DNA of 61,591 nt, from the NCBI GenBank assembly GCA_002868855.1, contig PKUM01000054.1:1-61591 (forward strand). Reading direction: 5' to 3'. Position 1 is the first letter of the stretch. Every line of letters starts with the position of its first letter. The translations under genes were made by a program, and so were the position numbers. A model generated the notes under the pieces. The model made no database searches. It was not told the origin of the DNA and worked only from the letters and a program-made list of their open reading frames with translations. Shown piece by piece: positions 14,334 through 22,288 of the stretch. Source of the DNA: Chromatiales bacterium. GTDB taxonomy: Bacteria; Pseudomonadota; Gammaproteobacteria; Steroidobacterales; BM003.

Positions 14334-15308
14334 TCAGCGCGCGGACCTGGCAACGGCGCCGGGTTCGTAGCGTTGCAGTTCTCCGTCCGGTCCGGCTATC
14401 TGCCGCGGCAGGCGCCCTGAATCGATCTGCCGCTCGAAGTCCGGCGCTGCTCGCGCCGAAACACTGACAACGCCGTTGTCGATCTCGATCAGTACAAAAC
14501 TGAACTCCGACTTGATATCCGAGCCGCTGAACCGGCGGATATTGCCCCCTAGTACCCCGGCGCTGACATGCAGCACACCGTTGTCGTCGATACCGGGGTA
14601 AAAAACATGATGATGCCCGCTTACCAGCATGGCGACATCGTGCGCCGCTAGCTGCTGTGCCAACCGAGAGTCGCGTAGTATCTCGGTCTCCCTGCCCTGG
14701 GCAAATGGCCACAACGGAAGATGGCAGAACACAATTCGTGTATCGAAGCGCTCGCCGTGCGCTGCCAGGACTGCCTCCAGGAACTCGCGTTGCGCCATCG
14801 GCAATGGCGACACCGTAGTGACGTCCAGCCCGATGATTAGTACTTTGCCAACGGCGACCGCGTAGTTGAGCGGATACGAATCGGCGGCGACAAACTCGAC
14901 GGCCGGGCGGCGCGTGCTCCACTCGTCGACAAAAATCTCCCGCTCGGCAGCGAAAACCGGATAGGCCGAGCCGTCGTGATTGCCAGGCGTCACCGCCAGC
15001 GGAATGCCGGCAGCGGCCAGTGGATCAGTCACATGCTGATGAAACGATGCCCACATGGCACGCACCTGCTCGCGGCTCAACAACGGCTGGCGTTGGCCAG
15101 CGACCATATCGCCGGCGGACAAAACCACGTCCGGCTGCAATTCAACGATTGCCGCGACAGCCGCATCAACACGTGCATGGTAACGGGTCGAACCATAACT
15201 GCCGTTCAGATCCGTGATTACCGCAATCGTCTCGCCCCGGGCCTGGCCGGCCAGACCGCAGAGCAGGACCGCGGCGACGCCGAACCAGAGGCTAATGTCA
15301 GTTTTCAT
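14334..15308 (-). CDS. Secreted metallophosphoesterase (calcineurin-like)
   Basis: ATG at 15308 (MKTDISLWFGVAAVLLCGLAGQARG). Motifs AGDMV, GNHD and SGHHHVF. The start overlaps the upstream gene's stop by 11 nt. Confidence 0.8.
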   Translation of the reverse strand: MKTDISLWFGVAAVLLCGLAGQARGETIAVITDLNGSYGSTRYHARVDAAVAAIVELQPDVVLSAGDMVAGQRQPLLSREQVRAMWASFHQHVTDPLAAAGIPLAVTPGNHDGSAYPVFAAEREIFVDEWSTRRPAVEFVAADSYPLNYAVAVGKVLIIGLDVTTVSPLPMAQREFLEAVLAAHGERFDTRIVFCHLPLWPFAQGRETEILRDSRLAQQLAAHDVAMLVSGHHHVFYPGIDDNGVLHVSAGVLGGNIRRFSGSDIKSEFSFVLIEIDNGVVSVSARAAPDFERQIDSGRLPRQIAGPDGELQRYEPGAVARSAR

Positions 15309-16788
15309 TTTGCATAGTGTCCAGCTTCTTTCCGGATTCGCAGTCGACGCTGGTTGCGGCAACCTCCCCATCGCGGATCAACAACTCGGGATCGAGGTCA
15401 AACCTGAGTTCGCCCGAGGCGCATTCGTCGCTCAGGATCGCGAATGCTTTTTTGACCTGCCGCGACAAGTGAACGAGATATTTGTCAGACAAGCCAAAGT
15501 TCCGTGCGGTGAACTGGAAGAGTTCACCCTGTTCGGCAAAATCCCGGGACAGCCTTGCAATGCGGCCGTAGAGGTCCGCGTTGAAATGACGCAGCCCATC
15601 AAGCATACCGGTCTTTTCGGCATAATTGACGTAAGCGGAGCGGCCGCCGGCATCGTTGTCGTTGATACGCGAACGCTTTAGACGTAGCGGTGCGTAGGCC
15701 GCGATATCCGCCGGCACCGATGGCTCCGCCGCCAAGCGCGTCATGAACTGTCCGTCCTGCCACCAGTGCCAGAGGAACTGGTAGTCGACGTTGCCGATGC
15801 GATCCTGCTGGTTGAAAAGATAATCCAGCCATACGACCTCGGTCAGTTCCTGCATCCAGAAAGCAACCTGGGCCGGGGCGACAGCACCGTTCAGGGCCCT
15901 CGCCATCTCGGGTTCGGCTCGCGCCTCGGCAATACCGGCGGCGATCGCTTCCGCCAGCGTCCCCTCCGAGCGCAGGGCGATAAACGGTGCGGTCCGTTGA
16001 AAATCGCGCGACTGGCCAACGCCCCAGCCTGACGCTCGCGTGCCATTGATGGCGGCGCCGTAGCGGCTTCCAGCCTCGAGCAACAGCACCCCGTAGACCC
16101 GCGCTGCGTCCGGCGTAATCACTTCGGCGCGATGGCGGTAGGCACCGGGGTCGGAGTCAGCGTCACGCAAGTGACTCCATCCGGCATGGATCATCTTCAG
16201 TTCGCTTCGGTCTGCGGTGAGACGGATTCCGGGTTCAACGACCCGCTCCCGATGCACGACCCGGTCCATGCTGCGGTAAACGGCCACCGGAACCCCGACC
16301 CGGCTCTGCAGGTATCGCGAGAAATGGTAGTAAAGCAGCGAAGATTGCGAATAGGTGGCACTCGTGTCCACCGCATTCATCGATACCTTGTAAATCGCCA
16401 GTTCGCGCCGTGCCGATTTTCGCGCCGAGCCGCCACGGGGGCAGATGTCGCGTTCGAACCCCGACGCATTGTCCTCAAAAGGCGTTTGCGCGATATCGTA
16501 GACCAGCATCGCCGGACTGGTACTCCAGGTCTTGGGGCAAACCGCCGTGTTGGCGGCATAAAAATCGATTTCGCAAAAACGCTGCTCCCACTGCCGGTCG
16601 GACTCGCTGTAAACGGCATCCGGCATATGGGCAAGCGCGATACAACTCTCGGCCGTGTCGCGGGTCGAGACGAACACCGGGCCACTGCCGCCAACGGCTT
16701 CGCTGATCTCCGCCTGCGCCGTCACTGACAACGCCAGCATCACCCAACCTGCCGGTACCAACCGCCGGTGATTGTTTCGCGGTGCCAT
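15298..16788 (-). CDS. Secreted hypothetical protein with atypical (FAM20/four-jointed-like) kinase motifs
   Basis: ATG at 16788 inside track ORF 15298..17118. Signal peptide MAPRNNHRRLVPAGWVMLALSVTAQA and 6 Cys. Motifs AIYKV, YYHFSRYLQSRVGVPVAVYR, LDYLFNQQDRIGNVDY and RINDNDAGG. Confidence 0.6.
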   Translation of the reverse strand: MAPRNNHRRLVPAGWVMLALSVTAQAEISEAVGGSGPVFVSTRDTAESCIALAHMPDAVYSESDRQWEQRFCEIDFYAANTAVCPKTWSTSPAMLVYDIAQTPFEDNASGFERDICPRGGSARKSARRELAIYKVSMNAVDTSATYSQSSLLYYHFSRYLQSRVGVPVAVYRSMDRVVHRERVVEPGIRLTADRSELKMIHAGWSHLRDADSDPGAYRHRAEVITPDAARVYGVLLLEAGSRYGAAINGTRASGWGVGQSRDFQRTAPFIALRSEGTLAEAIAAGIAEARAEPEMARALNGAVAPAQVAFWMQELTEVVWLDYLFNQQDRIGNVDYQFLWHWWQDGQFMTRLAAEPSVPADIAAYAPLRLKRSRINDNDAGGRSAYVNYAEKTGMLDGLRHFNADLYGRIARLSRDFAEQGELFQFTARNFGLSDKYLVHLSRQVKKAFAILSDECASGELRFDLDPELLIRDGEVAATSVDCESGKKLDTMQNEN

Positions 16789-17041
16789 CCACAAGCCCTC
16801 TTTGCCGATCCGGAATCGTTTGCCGCAGAAACTGAATAATACAGCCAGATACGGCAACGTGTTTTCGCGGCGCGAGCCGTCCGCGACTACATTCCTGCGG
16901 CCACCGAAGCGGCGGATCATCAAAACTGCCAACCGCGTCACGGATATCGGAATCGGGATGGCCCAGCATCGAAGCTGGGGTTTTTGCGGGATACAACAAA
17001 TGCTCAATGCGACGTCGATGTTCGGTAACGCCGCGGACATT

Positions 17042-17470
17042 ATGAGTGGCAAGCGGTGCGAGCCACTGCATGAGTTTCTGGATGCATTCGAAGCACGCCC
17101 AAGCAGGGCCCTGGACAACCCGTCAGATCCTGAACTGCCCGCACTGGCCAGTCACGAAAAGCACGAATTCGACTGGAGCGGTTCACGCGTAGGCTCGGTC
17201 GAGGTGATCCACAGTGGCGGCGAACCACTACAGCTCGCGGTCAGCCTGCCCTACCCGAAGCGGCGCTGGTTCTCGCCACGCCGCAAAGACTGGAAGAAGC
17301 TGGCCGATATCGCCGAGGACCGGTTCGGTCCGGGGCAAAAAATCGAGGTCGCCGGCAAAACCGGGCTGCACTTTCGCGAACGCAACCTCCTCGCCCTGAT
17401 CTGCCGCTACGACAACGGCAGCGAGTCGTTTATCGAGGTGAAACTCGCAAGCGGACGATTCTGGCGTTGA
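17042..17470 (+). CDS. Hypothetical protein (start uncertain; alternative ATG at 17000)
   Basis: Only the 3' part of track ORF 16772..17470 lies outside the neighbouring gene. The codon pattern looks coding, but I recognise no motif. Confidence 0.4.
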   Translation: MSGKRCEPLHEFLDAFEARPSRALDNPSDPELPALASHEKHEFDWSGSRVGSVEVIHSGGEPLQLAVSLPYPKRRWFSPRRKDWKKLADIAEDRFGPGQKIEVAGKTGLHFRERNLLALICRYDNGSESFIEVKLASGRFWR

Positions 17471-17644
17471 CCGCGTCGCAAAACCCGGATTAATAGTCTC
17501 CAAATCCCGGTTTTCTTGAGCTATTTCACATATTCCCGCGTGGGACATTCGTACCATCGATGTGCGCAGATGGGCTATATCCGTTTGCCGGGCGGAGATT
17601 GAAGTTTGGTCATCTCCGTTTCGGGCCAGGGAGGCATCCCGGGC

Positions 17645-17725
17645 TGCGACAAAGGCAACCCCGTCGCAAGACGGGGACGCAAAGCCACAGATCTCTGCGA
17701 GGAGATGGCTGGGCTGCCGACAACC
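17645..17725 (+). promoter_or_regulatory. c-di-GMP-I (GEMM-I) riboswitch-like aptamer
   Basis: AAAGGCAACC, then 7-bp hairpin CCCCGTC-GCAA-GACGGGG (17659-17676), then ACGCAAAGCC (17677-17686). A bulged hairpin CAGATCTC...GAGAT(GG)CTG follows at 17688-17711, then GGGCTGCCGA. GGCA (17654-57) can pair with TGCC (17715-18). The element ends 8-10 nt before the GAGG SD of the pilin gene. Confidence 0.7.
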
Positions 17726-17736
17726 TGAGGAAAACA

Positions 17737-18261
17737 ATGAGGATATTTGTCATGACATTTCGTAATCTGTACCGCAAGACTGCCATTGCCCTGGCAGTAA
17801 CGGGTGCCCTGGCCGGTGGACAGGTGATCGCTAACGACACCGATACACTGACGGTCACGGCCGTGGTAGATGCCACCTGCGACATCACCAACGTGGAAGT
17901 GCTCAATTTCGGAACGCTCGACCTGGTCAACGACGCGACTTCGAGTGCTGACATCACCTGGGTGTGCACCAATGGCTTTGACACCACTATCGCTCTGAAC
18001 GGCGGTGGCACCAGCAATATCAACAATCGTAATATGGTGGGCGCGTCGAATGGTGACAGTCTCGTGTACCAGCTCTACACCGATGCCGGCCTCGGTACGG
18101 TGTTCGGCGACGGCGCCAACGGCAGCACCGTTCCCGCGAACGGCGCCGGCTTCGGCAACGCGCAGACCACTACCGTACATGGCCAGGTTCTGGCCAGCGA
18201 TGCCGAGAACGTGTCGGCTGACACTTATAACGACAATGTCACCGTTACGATCACATTCTGA
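17737..18261 (+). CDS. Spore-coat-U (SCPU) domain fimbrial subunit, Csu-type major pilin
   Basis: ATG at 17737 (alternative at 17752). Signal peptide, then TLTVTAVVDATCDITN...DFGT-like start and the C-terminal YNDNVTVTITF typical of SCPU/CsuA-B pilins. Confidence 0.8.
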   Translation: MRIFVMTFRNLYRKTAIALAVTGALAGGQVIANDTDTLTVTAVVDATCDITNVEVLNFGTLDLVNDATSSADITWVCTNGFDTTIALNGGGTSNINNRNMVGASNGDSLVYQLYTDAGLGTVFGDGANGSTVPANGAGFGNAQTTTVHGQVLASDAENVSADTYNDNVTVTITF

Positions 18262-19003
18262 GTACGCGGGCTATTTCGGCCTGAGGAGGGCGGCACACGC
18301 CGCCCTCCTGTTCCTGCTTTGCGTCGGGGCGGCACATAGTGCCTCGGTGCAGGTGGTGCCGGTGCGCGTGGAAATTTCAGCCCAGCGCACAGCCGGCGAG
18401 CTGCGGATTATCAATTCAGGCGACAAACCGGTTTCGATGCAAGTCGATCCGCGTGAGTGGAGTCAGAACGTGGACGGCGTGGATCAGCTTGCGCCGACAG
18501 AGGAATTGCTGGCGGTACCACCGCTTTTTACCATTCCTCCGGGGCGCGATCAGATCGTCCGGCTCGGTCTGCTGGGCCAGCCAAGTCCCACCCACGAGAA
18601 GACCTTTCGCCTGCTGGTCACCGAGCTGGCGCCCGCCTCCGGCGAGCGCGAAGCGTCGGCGGTACGCATTAGATTGCAGCTCAGTATTCCCGTGTTCGTC
18701 GCGCCCAGCGAATCCGAGGCGATCCCCGAACTCGTCGTCGAGGACACCCGGATCGGCGCGGATGGCGTCATCGTTACGCTACGCAACACAGGCAATACCC
18801 ACGTCAAGCTCAAGCAGCTTTCCGTCGCAGCCAGCGGCGGCGACATGCCCGATGACGGGCGCAGCGGCAAGGGCCGCTACCTGCTCCCTGGAACGAGCGC
18901 CGAGATCTTCGTCCCCGGTCAACTGACCGGAGCCTTGCGGAGTGTCCGCATAGAAACCGAAGACGGGTGGAGCCGGGAGCATGCCGTGGCGCCTGACAAA
19001 TAG
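18236..19003 (+). CDS. Fimbrial periplasmic chaperone (PapD/CsuC-like)
   Basis: In-frame ATG at 18236 within track ORF 18005..19003. Signal peptide ...RRAAHAALLFLLCVGAAHSA. Motifs VQVVPVRVEI, RIINSGDKPV, LFTIPPGRDQIVRL and FRLLVTEL. The start is uncertain. Confidence 0.75.
   Translation: MSPLRSHSEYAGYFGLRRAAHAALLFLLCVGAAHSASVQVVPVRVEISAQRTAGELRIINSGDKPVSMQVDPREWSQNVDGVDQLAPTEELLAVPPLFTIPPGRDQIVRLGLLGQPSPTHEKTFRLLVTELAPASGEREASAVRIRLQLSIPVFVAPSESEAIPELVVEDTRIGADGVIVTLRNTGNTHVKLKQLSVAASGGDMPDDGRSGKGRYLLPGTSAEIFVPGQLTGALRSVRIETEDGWSREHAVAPDK
18284..18309 (+). promoter_or_regulatory. Intercistronic 11-bp GC hairpin between the pilin and chaperone genes
   Basis: AGGAGGGCGGC-ACAC-GCCGCCCTCCT is a perfect stem. 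It lies 23 nt after the pilin stop and within the predicted chaperone signal-peptide codons. Confidence 0.6.
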
Positions 19004-21737
19004 CCTGGGCCTGGCGGTCATTCTGTTGCTGCTGCTCACACACCGATGCGCGGGTAGCACGGACACCCCGGCGACTTCGCACACGCCGGTACCGGCGGTC
19101 GGAGAGAACGCAATAATGCTCACCCCGCATGGCGCCGCGCAGCCGGAACAGGCAGCTCAACCATCGCCGGCTGGTGAATCGGCCGCGGTGTATCCGGGCG
19201 CCAACGCAGAGCAGACCCGCGATTCAGAATTACCGGCATCTGCCGAAGCGAGCGAGCCCGCGCCCACGCATGGCGAAGGTCCCGCTAGCGAAAACGCGCC
19301 GGCTACAGAATTCGTTACATCCGTTCAGGCAGGCACCGACGTGCCCGTACAGGCGCCAGCCGCCGATTCACTTGATACCGAAACGTTCACCGCGTCGCTT
19401 TCGCCTGCCACGGTTGGGTCCCGGTTGACGTTTACCCAGTCTCCTGCCGAGCTGGTCAGCGAGCAGGAACAGCTGCTGTTCCTCGATGTAGAAGTCAACG
19501 GGGTCGGCCAGGGGACCACTCTGCTGCTGGCGGACGCGGCCGGCCAGGTGTTTGCCACGGCCGAGACCCTCAACGACTGGGGCGTCAAACCACCGTACCC
19601 GGCCGCGGTGGAACATGCTGGCCGGCGATTCCATGAATTCAGCGCTATTCCCGGCGTGCTGGTGGCGATGGAATCCTCGAGCATGAGTGCCGAGGTCAGC
19701 ATTCCGCCGCAATACATGTCGAATACGACGCTCTCATTGAGCCGCGACGATGCCCCTGCACCGGTTTCGGATTCCGGTGCGTTCGTCGATTACCAGGCCG
19801 CGTACACCGATGACGGCGGCGCCAATGCCAGACTGTTCTCGAGCGTTTTCGAGCCGACGATGTTCACCCCGCAGGGGACGCTGACCAGCGGGTCGCTGTA
19901 CCGCTGGTCGGACTACGATTATCGGGATTTCGAGGATGAAGACTACTTCGACGAGCGCGACGATCCGATCGAAGACGGCTGGATCCGCCTCGATTCGACC
20001 TGGACCCGCGACGATCCCGACAAAATACGCACATTCAAAATAGGTGATACGATCACACCGCAGAGCAGCTGGGCGCGCTCGGTCCGGTTTGGCGGGATCC
20101 AGCTGGCCACCAATTTCGCGACCCGCCCGAGCATGGTGACGTTCCCGCGACCGTCGTTCAGCAGTTCCTCGGCCGTACCGACCGCGCTCGATCTGTATGT
20201 CAACGGAAACCTCAGGTCCCGGCAGAATTTCCCGGACGGCACGTTCCGCATTGACGACATACCAGTGGTGAATGGCGCCGGCCAGATAGAGGTTGTCACC
20301 CGCGACCTGCTCGGCCGCGAAACGACAGTGACCCAGGACTTTTACGCCAGCGACCAGTTGTTGCTGCCCGGATTGAACGACTATGCACTGAGCGCGGGAT
20401 TTCTGCGCAAGAACTACGCGGTCAAAAGCAATGATTACGGCGATCCGTACGCCAGCGCGATATTGCGCCGCGGTATTCGCGAGAATCTGACTGTCGACGG
20501 CCGTCTCGAAACGACGGATGAAACCGTCGTCGCTGGCGCCGGTGCGGTTTTTTCACTAAACCGCTATGGGACATTCTCGGCCAGCGCGGCTTTCAGCGGC
20601 GGCGACGACAGCGGCGCACTGTGGCGCATCGGCCAGGATTATCGCGGTCGCAAATACCGCTTCAGCAGCCAGCTGCAGGGCACCAGCAGCGGCTTCACCC
20701 AGCCCGGTCTCGATATCGACTCGGGACTGCCAAAACTCCGGACACTACTGGGAAGTGGTGTCAGTCTCGGCGGGTTGGGCTCGATCGGCCTGACACTCGT
20801 CAATGAGACTTTTCACCGCGACGAAGACTCGCGCACGGTAATGAGTGCAAGCTACAGCCGCACGTTGCCGAGCCGAATCGCTTTTTCATTCTCGGCAAGT
20901 TACGTCGAGCAGGACGGCAGCGATCTCCAGGCAAGCCTGCTGTTCAGCAAATCGCTGGGGCCGCGCCGCAGCACCTCGGCAGCGCTCAACCTCAGCGACG
21001 ACGACAGCAACCTGCGTCTCGACTTTCGTCATGACCTGCCGTCCGGACCGGGTTACGGATACCGCCTGACCAGCTACAGCGGCGACTCGGAAGGCGTCGA
21101 GTCGGAGGCCTCGCTGAATACGGCTGGCGCACGCTATCGCGGCCAGGTCCGGCACCGCGACGGCGAGTACGGCTGGCGTGCGGAAATGACCGGCTCGCTG
21201 GCCTGGCTCGACGGTGAAACCTACGCCAATCGCGAGATTCGCGACGGCTTTGCCGTCATCGATACAGGTGGATACTCCGGTGTCACCGTCTTCCAGGAGA
21301 ACCGGGAAATCGGCGTCACCGACAAACGCGGTCGCCTGCTCGTGCCAAACCTGCGCCCCTACCAGGCCAACCGGCTGCATATCGCGGCCGAGGACTTGCC
21401 GCTCAATGCACGCACCTCGAGCTACAGCGCGGTTGTCGCCCCATACTATCGTTCCGGTGTGCTGATCGATCTCGGTGTGCGTCCGGCCCAGGCCGCCATC
21501 CTGCGGGTCGTCGACGCGGCCGGCGAGCCGGTCCCGGAGGGCGCCCAGGCGGGCATAGCCGACACGCCGGAACGCTACCCGGTCGGTCTCGATGGCCGTC
21601 TCTACATTGAAGGTCTGGGCGAGAACAGCCGCGTAGTCATTCGCCACGCCGGGGCTGAGTGCGAAATCGAGCTGCCACGGCCGGATCCGAACAAAGCGTT
21701 ACCCGACCTTGGCGAGTTCGTTTGCAACGGACTCTGA
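18981..21737 (+). CDS. Fimbrial outer-membrane usher (CsuD-like) with a long N-terminal low-complexity extension
   Basis: 918 aa. Signal peptide MPWRLTNSLGLAVILLLLLTHRCAG. Size and position (after the chaperone, overlapping it by 23 nt) fit an usher, and the beta-rich body has Y/G/S/D-rich segments. Confidence 0.75.
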   Translation: MPWRLTNSLGLAVILLLLLTHRCAGSTDTPATSHTPVPAVGENAIMLTPHGAAQPEQAAQPSPAGESAAVYPGANAEQTRDSELPASAEASEPAPTHGEGPASENAPATEFVTSVQAGTDVPVQAPAADSLDTETFTASLSPATVGSRLTFTQSPAELVSEQEQLLFLDVEVNGVGQGTTLLLADAAGQVFATAETLNDWGVKPPYPAAVEHAGRRFHEFSAIPGVLVAMESSSMSAEVSIPPQYMSNTTLSLSRDDAPAPVSDSGAFVDYQAAYTDDGGANARLFSSVFEPTMFTPQGTLTSGSLYRWSDYDYRDFEDEDYFDERDDPIEDGWIRLDSTWTRDDPDKIRTFKIGDTITPQSSWARSVRFGGIQLATNFATRPSMVTFPRPSFSSSSAVPTALDLYVNGNLRSRQNFPDGTFRIDDIPVVNGAGQIEVVTRDLLGRETTVTQDFYASDQLLLPGLNDYALSAGFLRKNYAVKSNDYGDPYASAILRRGIRENLTVDGRLETTDETVVAGAGAVFSLNRYGTFSASAAFSGGDDSGALWRIGQDYRGRKYRFSSQLQGTSSGFTQPGLDIDSGLPKLRTLLGSGVSLGGLGSIGLTLVNETFHRDEDSRTVMSASYSRTLPSRIAFSFSASYVEQDGSDLQASLLFSKSLGPRRSTSAALNLSDDDSNLRLDFRHDLPSGPGYGYRLTSYSGDSEGVESEASLNTAGARYRGQVRHRDGEYGWRAEMTGSLAWLDGETYANREIRDGFAVIDTGGYSGVTVFQENREIGVTDKRGRLLVPNLRPYQANRLHIAAEDLPLNARTSSYSAVVAPYYRSGVLIDLGVRPAQAAILRVVDAAGEPVPEGAQAGIADTPERYPVGLDGRLYIEGLGENSRVVIRHAGAECEIELPRPDPNKALPDLGEFVCNGL

Positions 21738-21739
21738 CG

Positions 21740-22288
21740 ATGCAGGTGCGCCCGCCCCAGCTTTGCACCGATGCCGCGCCGCAATGGTACGCTTTGCGCT
21801 CAATGGACCTGCCAACAGAACGAAAAAGCCGCATCCGGGCAAGAACGCTGGCCGTACTGCTGCTGATGCTCGGCGCGACGATGACGAATATCGCGAGCGC
21901 CCAGAACTGCACCATTACCGCCGTTCCGCTTAATTTTGGCTCATATCTTCCGAACGACCTCGCCCCGCTGGACAATGCCGGTGCGGTCGACATCGACTGC
22001 AAGGGCCGCGGCGGAATATTCCAGGTTACGATCGCTGCGGGAAACAGCAACGCCTACTTGCAACGCCTGATGCTGAGTGCGACCGACGCACTTGCCTATA
22101 ACGTCTACCTCGATGCCGCACGCACGCAAATCTGGGGCGACTGGAGTAGCGGAACGTCGGCGCTGTCGCGGTTCCGCCGAAACGGCCGCTACCGCGAATC
22201 GATCCCGGTTTACGGGCGGATCTTCGCCGGTCAGGACGTGGATCCGGGTATCTACTCGGACAGCCTGCTGGTAACGATTATCTTCTAG
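21740..22288 (+). CDS. Second SCPU-domain fimbrial subunit (possible tip or minor subunit)
   Basis: ATG at 21740 (alternative at 21803, MDLPTERKSR...). Signal peptide, then NCTITAVPLNFGSY and C-terminal YSDSLLVTIIF. Confidence 0.75.
   Translation: MQVRPPQLCTDAAPQWYALRSMDLPTERKSRIRARTLAVLLLMLGATMTNIASAQNCTITAVPLNFGSYLPNDLAPLDNAGAVDIDCKGRGGIFQVTIAAGNSNAYLQRLMLSATDALAYNVYLDAARTQIWGDWSSGTSALSRFRRNGRYRESIPVYGRIFAGQDVDPGIYSDSLLVTIIF

Follow-up and report, generated by a model that had tools for sequence, protein, structure and literature searches.

A predicted canonical c-di-GMP-I riboswitch aptamer in the 5′ leader of a Csu-type pilus operon from an uncultured gammaproteobacterium

The contig PKUM01000054.1 (assembly GCA_002868855.1, Chromatiales bacterium) contains a Csu-type pilus operon whose 5′ leader, judging from its sequence, carries a canonical aptamer of class I for the second messenger and biofilm signal cyclic di-GMP (c-di-GMP-I, or GEMM-I). 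The whole contig of 61,591 nucleotides (nt) was analysed and is called the window below; all positions refer to its forward strand. A cmscan search of this 61.6-kb window against Rfam 15 returned a single match at the gathering threshold, at 17645-17722 on the forward strand. The match reached 73.5 bits (gathering score 59; E = 1.6e-15) and covered the model at full length (positions 1-80 of 80), and a permissive Rfam scan of 17450-17850 gave nothing further that was credible. The element is real and goes far beyond chance resemblance. Its identity as a c-di-GMP-I aptamer, taken jointly with a cis-regulatory role, seems very probable to us from the sequence evidence set out below. As a whole, the best explanation would be a canonical c-di-GMP-I aptamer that exerts translational control, likely as an ON switch, and we give this reading a probability of roughly 0.7.

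Eight orthologous loci (L001, L031, L034, L035, L038, L039, L041 and L170) were fetched for comparison, with pilins 64-99% identical to the pilin of the window. Close pilin homologs were found solely in metagenomes and metagenome-assembled genomes (MAGs), and the nearest named record was an uncultured Gammaproteobacteria MAG. The gene order on both sides matched in the orthologs wherever their contigs reached, and the entire 281-nt intergenic region could be aligned across them. The original prediction, made from the letters of the window, had described a GEMM-I-like leader by a series of conserved blocks. We found all of these blocks in place: AAAGGCAACC at 17651-17660, CCCCGTC-GCAA-GACGGGG at 17659-17676, ACGCAAAGCC at 17677-17686, CAGATCTC-tgcgag-GAGAT-GG-CTG at 17688-17711 and GGGCTGCCGA at 17711-17720. 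The parts of the aptamer are listed here with their equivalents in Vc2, the aptamer of the Vibrio cholerae tfoY leader.

17640-17643 (+): 5′ flank CGGG, which can extend helix P1 by pairing with CCUG at 17724-17727 (read from the sequence).
17645-17648 (+): 5′ strand of P1, UGCG, pairing with CGACA at 17718-17722 with A17720 bulged (structure line of the model); invariant in the orthologs.
17654 (+): G17654, equivalent of Vc2 G20, at the unpaired model position 10; G in 9 of 9 leaders.
17659-17676 (+): first hairpin, CCCCGUC/GACGGGG, with a GCAA tetraloop of the GYRA type at 17666-17669 (sequence and model).
17678 (+): C17678, equivalent of Vc2 C44; from its position in the alignment, the likely inter-helix Watson-Crick partner of the bulged G17708.
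17681-17683 (+): AAA linker, in which A17681 is the equivalent of Vc2 A47 and mismatches the G of the consensus at model position 37; all nine leaders have A.
17683-17715 (+): second hairpin of 12 pairs, with bulged A17687 and G17707-G17708 and the loop UGCGAG at 17696-17701 (model structure).
17717 (+): C17717, equivalent of Vc2 C92, which makes a Watson-Crick contact with the ligand's second guanine, at the unpaired junction model position 75; invariant in the orthologs.

In Vc2, the ligand is contacted by G20, A47 and C92 (PMC4744006, PMC5888326), and the equivalents of all three are invariant in the nine leaders. G17654 was assigned to G20 because it is unpaired and precedes G17655-C17656, which pair with G17679-C17680 in the family structure. 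The fold also agrees with the class. The two hairpins are joined by AAA, the linker that is "virtually always AAA" in GEMM (PMC1950547), the first loop is of the GNRA type, and C17678 with G17708 would supply the inter-helix C44-G83 pair, which is universally conserved in GEMM (PMC4744006) and which was placed here by position. The CGGG/CCUG extension of P1 arose unprompted whenever the aptamer was enforced in the folding calculation; it is invariant in the orthologs and thus carries no covariation evidence.

Read from these nucleotides, G17654, A17681 and C17717 make up the canonical c-di-GMP signature and not that of 3′3′-cyclic GMP-AMP (3′3′-cGAMP), whose sensors (GEMM-Ib) have A at position 20, where all leaders have G. 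The original prediction had come to the same choice of ligand, and it was right that the specificity base is G. However, this base lies two positions 5′ of CAACC (G17654) and not directly adjacent to it; both bases are G. Two of its structural proposals did not hold. The first was a pairing of TGCC near the 3′ end with GGCA near the 5′ end. Plain RNAfold does draw this pairing, but it is absent from the family consensus, in which G17655-C17656 pair with G17679-C17680 and C17717 is an unpaired contact. The second was a tetraloop receptor at the GG bulge of the second hairpin, which GEMM members with a GYRA loop almost never have (PMC1950547); moreover, G17708 aligns as the partner of C17678.

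The comparison of the leaders supported the fold. The aptamer was recovered in all four orthologs scanned with Rfam, of the eight fetched, at 68.5-70.8 bits (L001, L034, L038 and L039), and these positive orthologs reach down to 64-67% pilin identity. Standard pairs occupied 99.5% of the cells of the 29-pair structure, compared with 30-52% in controls with slid partners. Two-sided compensatory changes were observed in three pairs, all of them in the second hairpin: C17686-G17712 was replaced by U-A in L039, and A17691-U17706 and C17695-G17702 were replaced by G-C and U-A, respectively, in L034. Compensatory changes had been anticipated for both helices; the second helix has them in these three pairs, whereas the first shows wobble changes only. 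The loop of the first hairpin varies but stays within GNRA (GCAA, GAAA, GUGA), and the loop sequence of the second hairpin is unconstrained, so that helices are preserved while loops vary across the leaders. This pattern is relevant to the most sceptical alternative, namely that the element is a chance resemblance or a decayed, functionless relic. Helices maintained by compensatory changes while loops drift, in lineages with pilins down to 64-67% identity, speak against it, as does the E value of 1.6e-15 over the entire model, and we regard it as practically negligible.

The best-scoring and displayed model at 17645-17722 was not RF01051 but RF03167 (c-di-GMP-I-GGC). Only the best member of a clan is shown per site, and another family of clan CL00126 also scored above its own gathering score there without being displayed. 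The full-length covariance-model match above threshold, together with this second passing family, bears out the GEMM-I identity proposed originally. The c-di-GMP-I-GGC class is an orphan class that was reportedly defined by Weinberg et al. in 2017 (PNAS). We take "GGC" to name positions 20, 47 and 92, which agrees with the printed RF03167 consensus.

It could be argued from this label that the element is a specificity variant that senses another ligand, either as a member of the orphan class or as a 3′3′-cGAMP sensor, since RF03167 tops the Rfam scoring with 73.5 bits against its gathering score of 59. However, the window and 8 of 8 orthologs have A instead of the upper-case consensus G at model position 37; they read ACGCAAAG where the RF03167 consensus is ACGCGAAG. 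As a control, we examined the labels of 19 metagenome loci with ordinary ACGCAAAG aptamers. Seventeen of them were also labelled RF03167 in the Rfam scan (60.9-79.4 bits), and therefore the label does not discriminate. A cGAMP sensor would in turn have A at position 20, which is G here. We also looked for relatives with G47 in metagenomes by a pattern scan allowing R at this position; A was found in 132 of 133 matches, and the sole G match looked spurious. A variant specificity is therefore very improbable. Membership of the GGC variant was rejected, although the score passes, on account of the A at the defining position and the 19-aptamer control. Judged by these nucleotides, the element does not belong to the variant biologically, and the label is a product of clan competition. 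Annotators should be aware that canonical c-di-GMP-I aptamers can be mislabelled as the orphan GGC variant, and the defining nucleotide should be checked. A riboswitch specialist will find nothing surprising here.

The position of the aptamer relative to the pilin gene depends on the start codon, around which three features were compared among the leaders.

17727-17733 (+): first GAGGAAA copy, with no conserved start after it; kept in 8 of 9 leaders (GAUGAAA in L001).
17737-17739 (+): ATG unique to the window; AAG or ACG in 8 of 8 orthologs, and not the conserved start.
17739-17743 (+): conserved Shine-Dalgarno sequence GAGGA, 8 nt before the start codon; invariant in the nine leaders.

The original prediction had started the gene at ATG 17737, with a Shine-Dalgarno sequence 8-10 nt after the aptamer. 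Neither assignment survived the comparison. From the alignment, the conserved start is ATG 17752, and all seven full-length homologs (67-99% identity) are called from the Met at this position. The leader of L170 is identical to that of the window at 215 of 216 positions, and the sole difference is a C in place of T17738. The conserved GAGGA begins 17 nt after the aptamer. The window-only ATG 17737 is in frame with the pilin, and because it sits 6 nt past the first GAGGAAA copy, the pilin precursor of the window strain might be 5 residues longer. Mechanically called open reading frames (ORFs) cross the riboswitch on both strands, at 17560-18261 on the forward strand and at 17228-17737 and 17575-18180 on the reverse strand. 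The forward ORF, which opens with the ATG at 17560, shares the frame of the pilin. Conservation across the leader follows helices and not codons, so these ORFs are not genes.

The aptamer thus stands in a regulatory position, on the same strand as the pilin gene and 30 nt ahead of its start codon. No intrinsic terminator was found between the aptamer and the pilin gene; the sole terminator-like call of the scan was the reverse complement of the first hairpin. This agrees with the original prediction, which had seen a terminator-free stretch there and had suggested translational control. As the element occupies the leader of a Csu-type operon without a terminator, control at translation initiation is the most economical reading; we infer both this and the direction of the switch from the leader, and consider translational control moderately probable. 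The mechanism that we propose involves one further hairpin.

17719-17751 (+): proposed ligand-free hairpin, GACAACCU (17719-17726) with AGG (17740-17742) and UUGUC (17747-17751).

In the segment GACAACCU, the linker connects the 3′ strand of P1 with the first three bases of CCUG. In the ligand-free state, this segment would pair with AGG, which lies inside the Shine-Dalgarno sequence, and with UUGUC, the five bases just before the AUG. When c-di-GMP is bound, P1 (UGCG/CGACA) would form and would be extended by CGGG (17640-17643) and CCUG (17724-17727). The extended P1 would take the anti-Shine-Dalgarno strand away, and the ribosome-binding site of ATG 17752 would be freed. High c-di-GMP would then lead to more pilin synthesis. 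Each of the 8 leaders tested formed the Shine-Dalgarno hairpin in its minimum-free-energy fold. Across the leaders neither arm varies, while substitutions occur in the enclosed loop, at 17729 and 17734-17738. When the aptamer was enforced, P1 extended via CGGG/CCUG and the Shine-Dalgarno hairpin could not form. In seven of the 8 leaders, the predicted accessibility of the ribosome-binding site then increased from 0.45-0.55 to 0.56-0.64. c-di-GMP is usually linked to adhesion, and an ON direction fits this general physiology. An activating c-di-GMP-I element is already known, namely Vc1 upstream of gbpA (PMC4744006). We put forward the ON direction only tentatively, at less than even odds.

A similar three-way arrangement was noticed by eye, without quantification, in five unrelated metagenome aptamers (L043, L059, L088, L105 and L154), in which the 5′ flank is rich in G, the 3′ flank is CCUC and the Shine-Dalgarno sequence is GGAGG.

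Several observations weigh against the reading as a whole. The score of RF01051 itself is masked by the clan filter and cannot be read. P1 shows no variation in the orthologs, and the first hairpin shows one-sided wobble changes alone (C-G to U-G and U-A to U-G). At about -4 kcal/mol as a stand-alone structure, the Shine-Dalgarno hairpin has little stability, and all of its pairs are invariant and thus without covariation support. A weak alternative hairpin, GGAAAU/AUUUC, can cover the Shine-Dalgarno sequence in the bound state. The ON model also leaves the conservation of the first GAGGAAA copy unaccounted for. Finally, in the window's own sequence the enforced aptamer lowered the predicted accessibility from 0.49 to 0.39.

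This last decrease would be expected if the same aptamer were a translational OFF switch, in which the ligand-stabilised P1, reaching to G17727 and stacked on the aptamer, hinders ribosome loading at the GA-rich segment 17727-17745, and in which the leader without ligand would be open. Such a switch would also agree with the end point of the extended P1, which coincides with the initial G of the first, conserved GAGGAAA copy. However, the conserved Shine-Dalgarno sequence (17739-17743) and the AUG lie 12-25 nt past the helix, and accessibility increased in the other seven leaders. Among conserved sequences, only the 3′ strand of P1 is complementary to the ribosome-binding site, and ligand binding would remove this strand. 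In addition, repression of an adhesin at high c-di-GMP would be contrary to the usual physiology. An OFF switch thus seems unlikely, and we retain the ON switch as the preferred direction.

The leader upstream of the aptamer is also conserved, and four features were recognised in it.

17485-17517 (+): hairpin CCGGAUU/AAUCCCGG with an 11-nt loop, followed by a UUUUCUU tail, just after the upstream gene.
17515-17557 (+): invariant block containing cTTGA-N6-TCACA (CRP/FNR-like half-sites, 17515-17530) and TACCAT (17552-17557).
17566-17588 (+): G-U-rich hairpin, kept through G-U and one-sided changes only.
17589-17623 (+): conserved hairpin upstream of the aptamer, with three two-sided compensatory pairs among 7 leaders (RNAalifold).

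The hairpin at 17589-17623 is probably part of the same 5′ untranslated region. Both this hairpin and the G-U-rich one are conserved, which implies a long structured 5′ untranslated region. The hairpin at 17485-17517 probably serves the upstream gene as its terminator. In L039 and L034 the sequences differ, but an equivalent hairpin with a U-rich tail could be found by eye. Our simple terminator scan missed the hairpin of the window because its loop has 11 nt. The region between this terminator-like hairpin and the aptamer is nearly as conserved as the aptamer itself. Two alternative helices were considered and rejected. One of them, in the minimum-free-energy fold of 17600-17770, paired 17603-17620 with the 3′ strand of the second hairpin. 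Its upstream segment is the 3′ arm of a covarying hairpin of its own, and the substitutions that this segment has in L031, L039 and L034 are not matched in the aptamer. The other, a long-range helix, would join UUUC (17620-17623) with GAAA (17730-17733) around the aptamer; UUUC varies (UACC, AGCC, UUCC) while GAAA is constant.

A leader of this kind raises another alternative, in which a functional aptamer would act not on translation initiation but on Rho-dependent termination or on the decay of the mRNA within the long leader. The length, conservation and structure of the region upstream of the aptamer would suit such an output, and so would the failure to find an intrinsic terminator and the weakness of the Shine-Dalgarno hairpin. 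No Rho-utilisation or RNase site is in evidence, though neither was searched for. On the other hand, 30 nt separate the aptamer from the start codon, and the sequence of the 3′ strand of P1 complements that of the ribosome-binding site, a layout that is usual for translational control in Proteobacteria. We consider this alternative rather unlikely, and translational control remains our preferred reading of the output.

The invariant block at 17515-17557 might add a second level of control. TACCAT lies about 22 nt past the CRP/FNR-like half-sites and is a possible -10 element for a start near 17564. A CRP-type pattern with at most 2 mismatches was not enriched in the window (9 matches versus 15 expected), and the conservation of the motif is its sole support. 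A sigma-70 promoter scan of 17300-18400 found nothing. It is conceivable, although doubtful, that the whole is a composite leader of about 190 nt, in which the riboswitch is one module and a putative cyclic-nucleotide regulator at transcription is combined with a c-di-GMP ON switch at translation. If this were true, transcription of the pilus operon would respond to a second signal and its translation to c-di-GMP, with the ON switch arising from competition between the P1 extension and the anti-Shine-Dalgarno strand, and this would be the first worked example of a riboswitch-controlled chaperone-usher (Csu-type) pilus.

The genes downstream of the leader and the conserved neighbours upstream of it were as follows.

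About 17000-17470 (+), and a long ORF within 15298-17118 (-): syntenic neighbours in the window, without a Pfam match.
17752-18261 (+): major pilin with an SCPU domain (CsuA/B-like), 169 amino acids from the conserved ATG (Pfam PF05229, E = 8e-25).
18200-19003 (+): PapD-like periplasmic chaperone, start uncertain (Pfam PF00345, E = 6e-17).
18981-21737 (+): outer-membrane usher (Pfam PF00577, Usher, and PF13953, PapC_C).
21740-22288 (+): second SCPU-domain subunit and last gene of the operon (Pfam PF05229, E = 2e-26; a 182-amino-acid gene is called in the ortholog L035).

The match to PF05229 confirmed that the gene behind the leader is a Csu-type (SCPU) pilin, as had been predicted. SCPU subunits, a PapD-like chaperone and an usher stand together in one cluster, in an order shared with the orthologs, which is the composition of a Csu-type, or archaic, chaperone-usher operon. 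For the chaperone, the start was set by analogy with the orthologs, in which genes of 267 amino acids are called. The operon is followed by a convergent gene for an M3 peptidase. The usher has 918 amino acids, but its Pfam domains match from about residue 595 onwards only, and Ala, Pro, Glu and Ser are abundant in roughly its first 250 residues. Three ORFs (143, 174 and 614 amino acids) are called in the usher region of L031, which points to frameshifts or errors of assembly in that locus. Wherever an ortholog has sufficient flank, it has the same two syntenic neighbours, a gene of 156 amino acids on the forward strand and one of 480-540 amino acids on the reverse strand.

We also surveyed how far the association of riboswitch and pilus extends. 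Rfam gave no GEMM match at any of 29 genomic loci with more distant SCPU pilins (30-43% identity; Roseateles, Steroidobacteraceae and others), nor at five loci retrieved for four metagenome pilins of intermediate distance (41-47% identity). Therefore, the idea that the riboswitch is a general feature of SCPU pilins was rejected. In the opposite direction, a tblastn search of 120 GEMM-I metagenome loci, in which the positive control worked, found no relatives of SCPU, PapD or usher proteins; a single non-significant hidden Markov model match was obtained. As distant SCPU loci lack GEMM and the GEMM-I metagenome loci lack pilus genes, the pairing of this aptamer with an SCPU operon appears to be limited to one lineage. 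The association is not new in kind. The original description of GEMM in 2007 already has papC and papD in its list of families whose genes recur downstream of the element (PMC1950547, Table 2). That link has so far been a gene association only, and in our full-text literature searches no work on a c-di-GMP riboswitch in front of a chaperone-usher, Csu or SCPU operon came up. The present element would add a clear and conserved case, from uncultured Gammaproteobacteria, in which c-di-GMP acts directly on the mRNA for an archaic (Csu-like) chaperone-usher pilus. The segment 17640-17760 would be a compact construct for a translational c-di-GMP-I switch in a Gram-negative setting.

During this survey, we observed that some metagenome contigs carry several c-di-GMP-I aptamers, two or three on each of L120 (9528-11689), L052, L071 and L043 (5285-5554). 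They are spaced by 0.2-1 kb in L120, L052 and L071. In L043, an aptamer labelled RF01051 is directly followed by one labelled RF03167, which starts about 90 nt after the first ends.

Compared with known systems, the element is most similar to the RF01051 riboswitches of V. cholerae, Vc2 in the tfoY leader and Vc1 in the gbpA leader. It shares with them the two-hairpin fold joined by AAA, the GNRA first loop, the G20, A47 and C92 contacts, the C44-G83 pair and the location in the 5′ leader of a gene with a surface or adhesion function. With Vc1, expression is activated by c-di-GMP (PMC4744006), which is the direction proposed for the window element. The latter differs in its short second hairpin, its GYRA-type first loop, the absence of the 11-nt tetraloop receptor, its uncultured gammaproteobacterial host and its SCPU/Csu-type operon, and it is known from sequence alone. 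With RF03167 it shares the helix lengths and most of the conserved blocks, but the window and its orthologs have A in place of the defining G. The 3′3′-cGAMP (GEMM-Ib) riboswitches of Geobacter have the same fold and belong to the same clan, but have A where G17654 stands here; A at position 20 was reportedly described for these riboswitches by Kellenberger (2015) and Nelson (2015).

A link between c-di-GMP, pili and adhesion is also shared with pilA1 of Clostridioides difficile, where an upstream c-di-GMP-II riboswitch switches on the gene for type IV pili. However, that riboswitch has an unrelated class II fold and acts by transcription anti-termination, and its target is a type IV and not a chaperone-usher pilus. 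On the side of the pilus itself, the closest comparison is with the Csu pili of Acinetobacter baumannii, which likewise involve an SCPU pilin, a PapD-type chaperone, an usher and a further SCPU subunit. The operon of the window has four genes, compared with six in A. baumannii (csuA/BABCDE).

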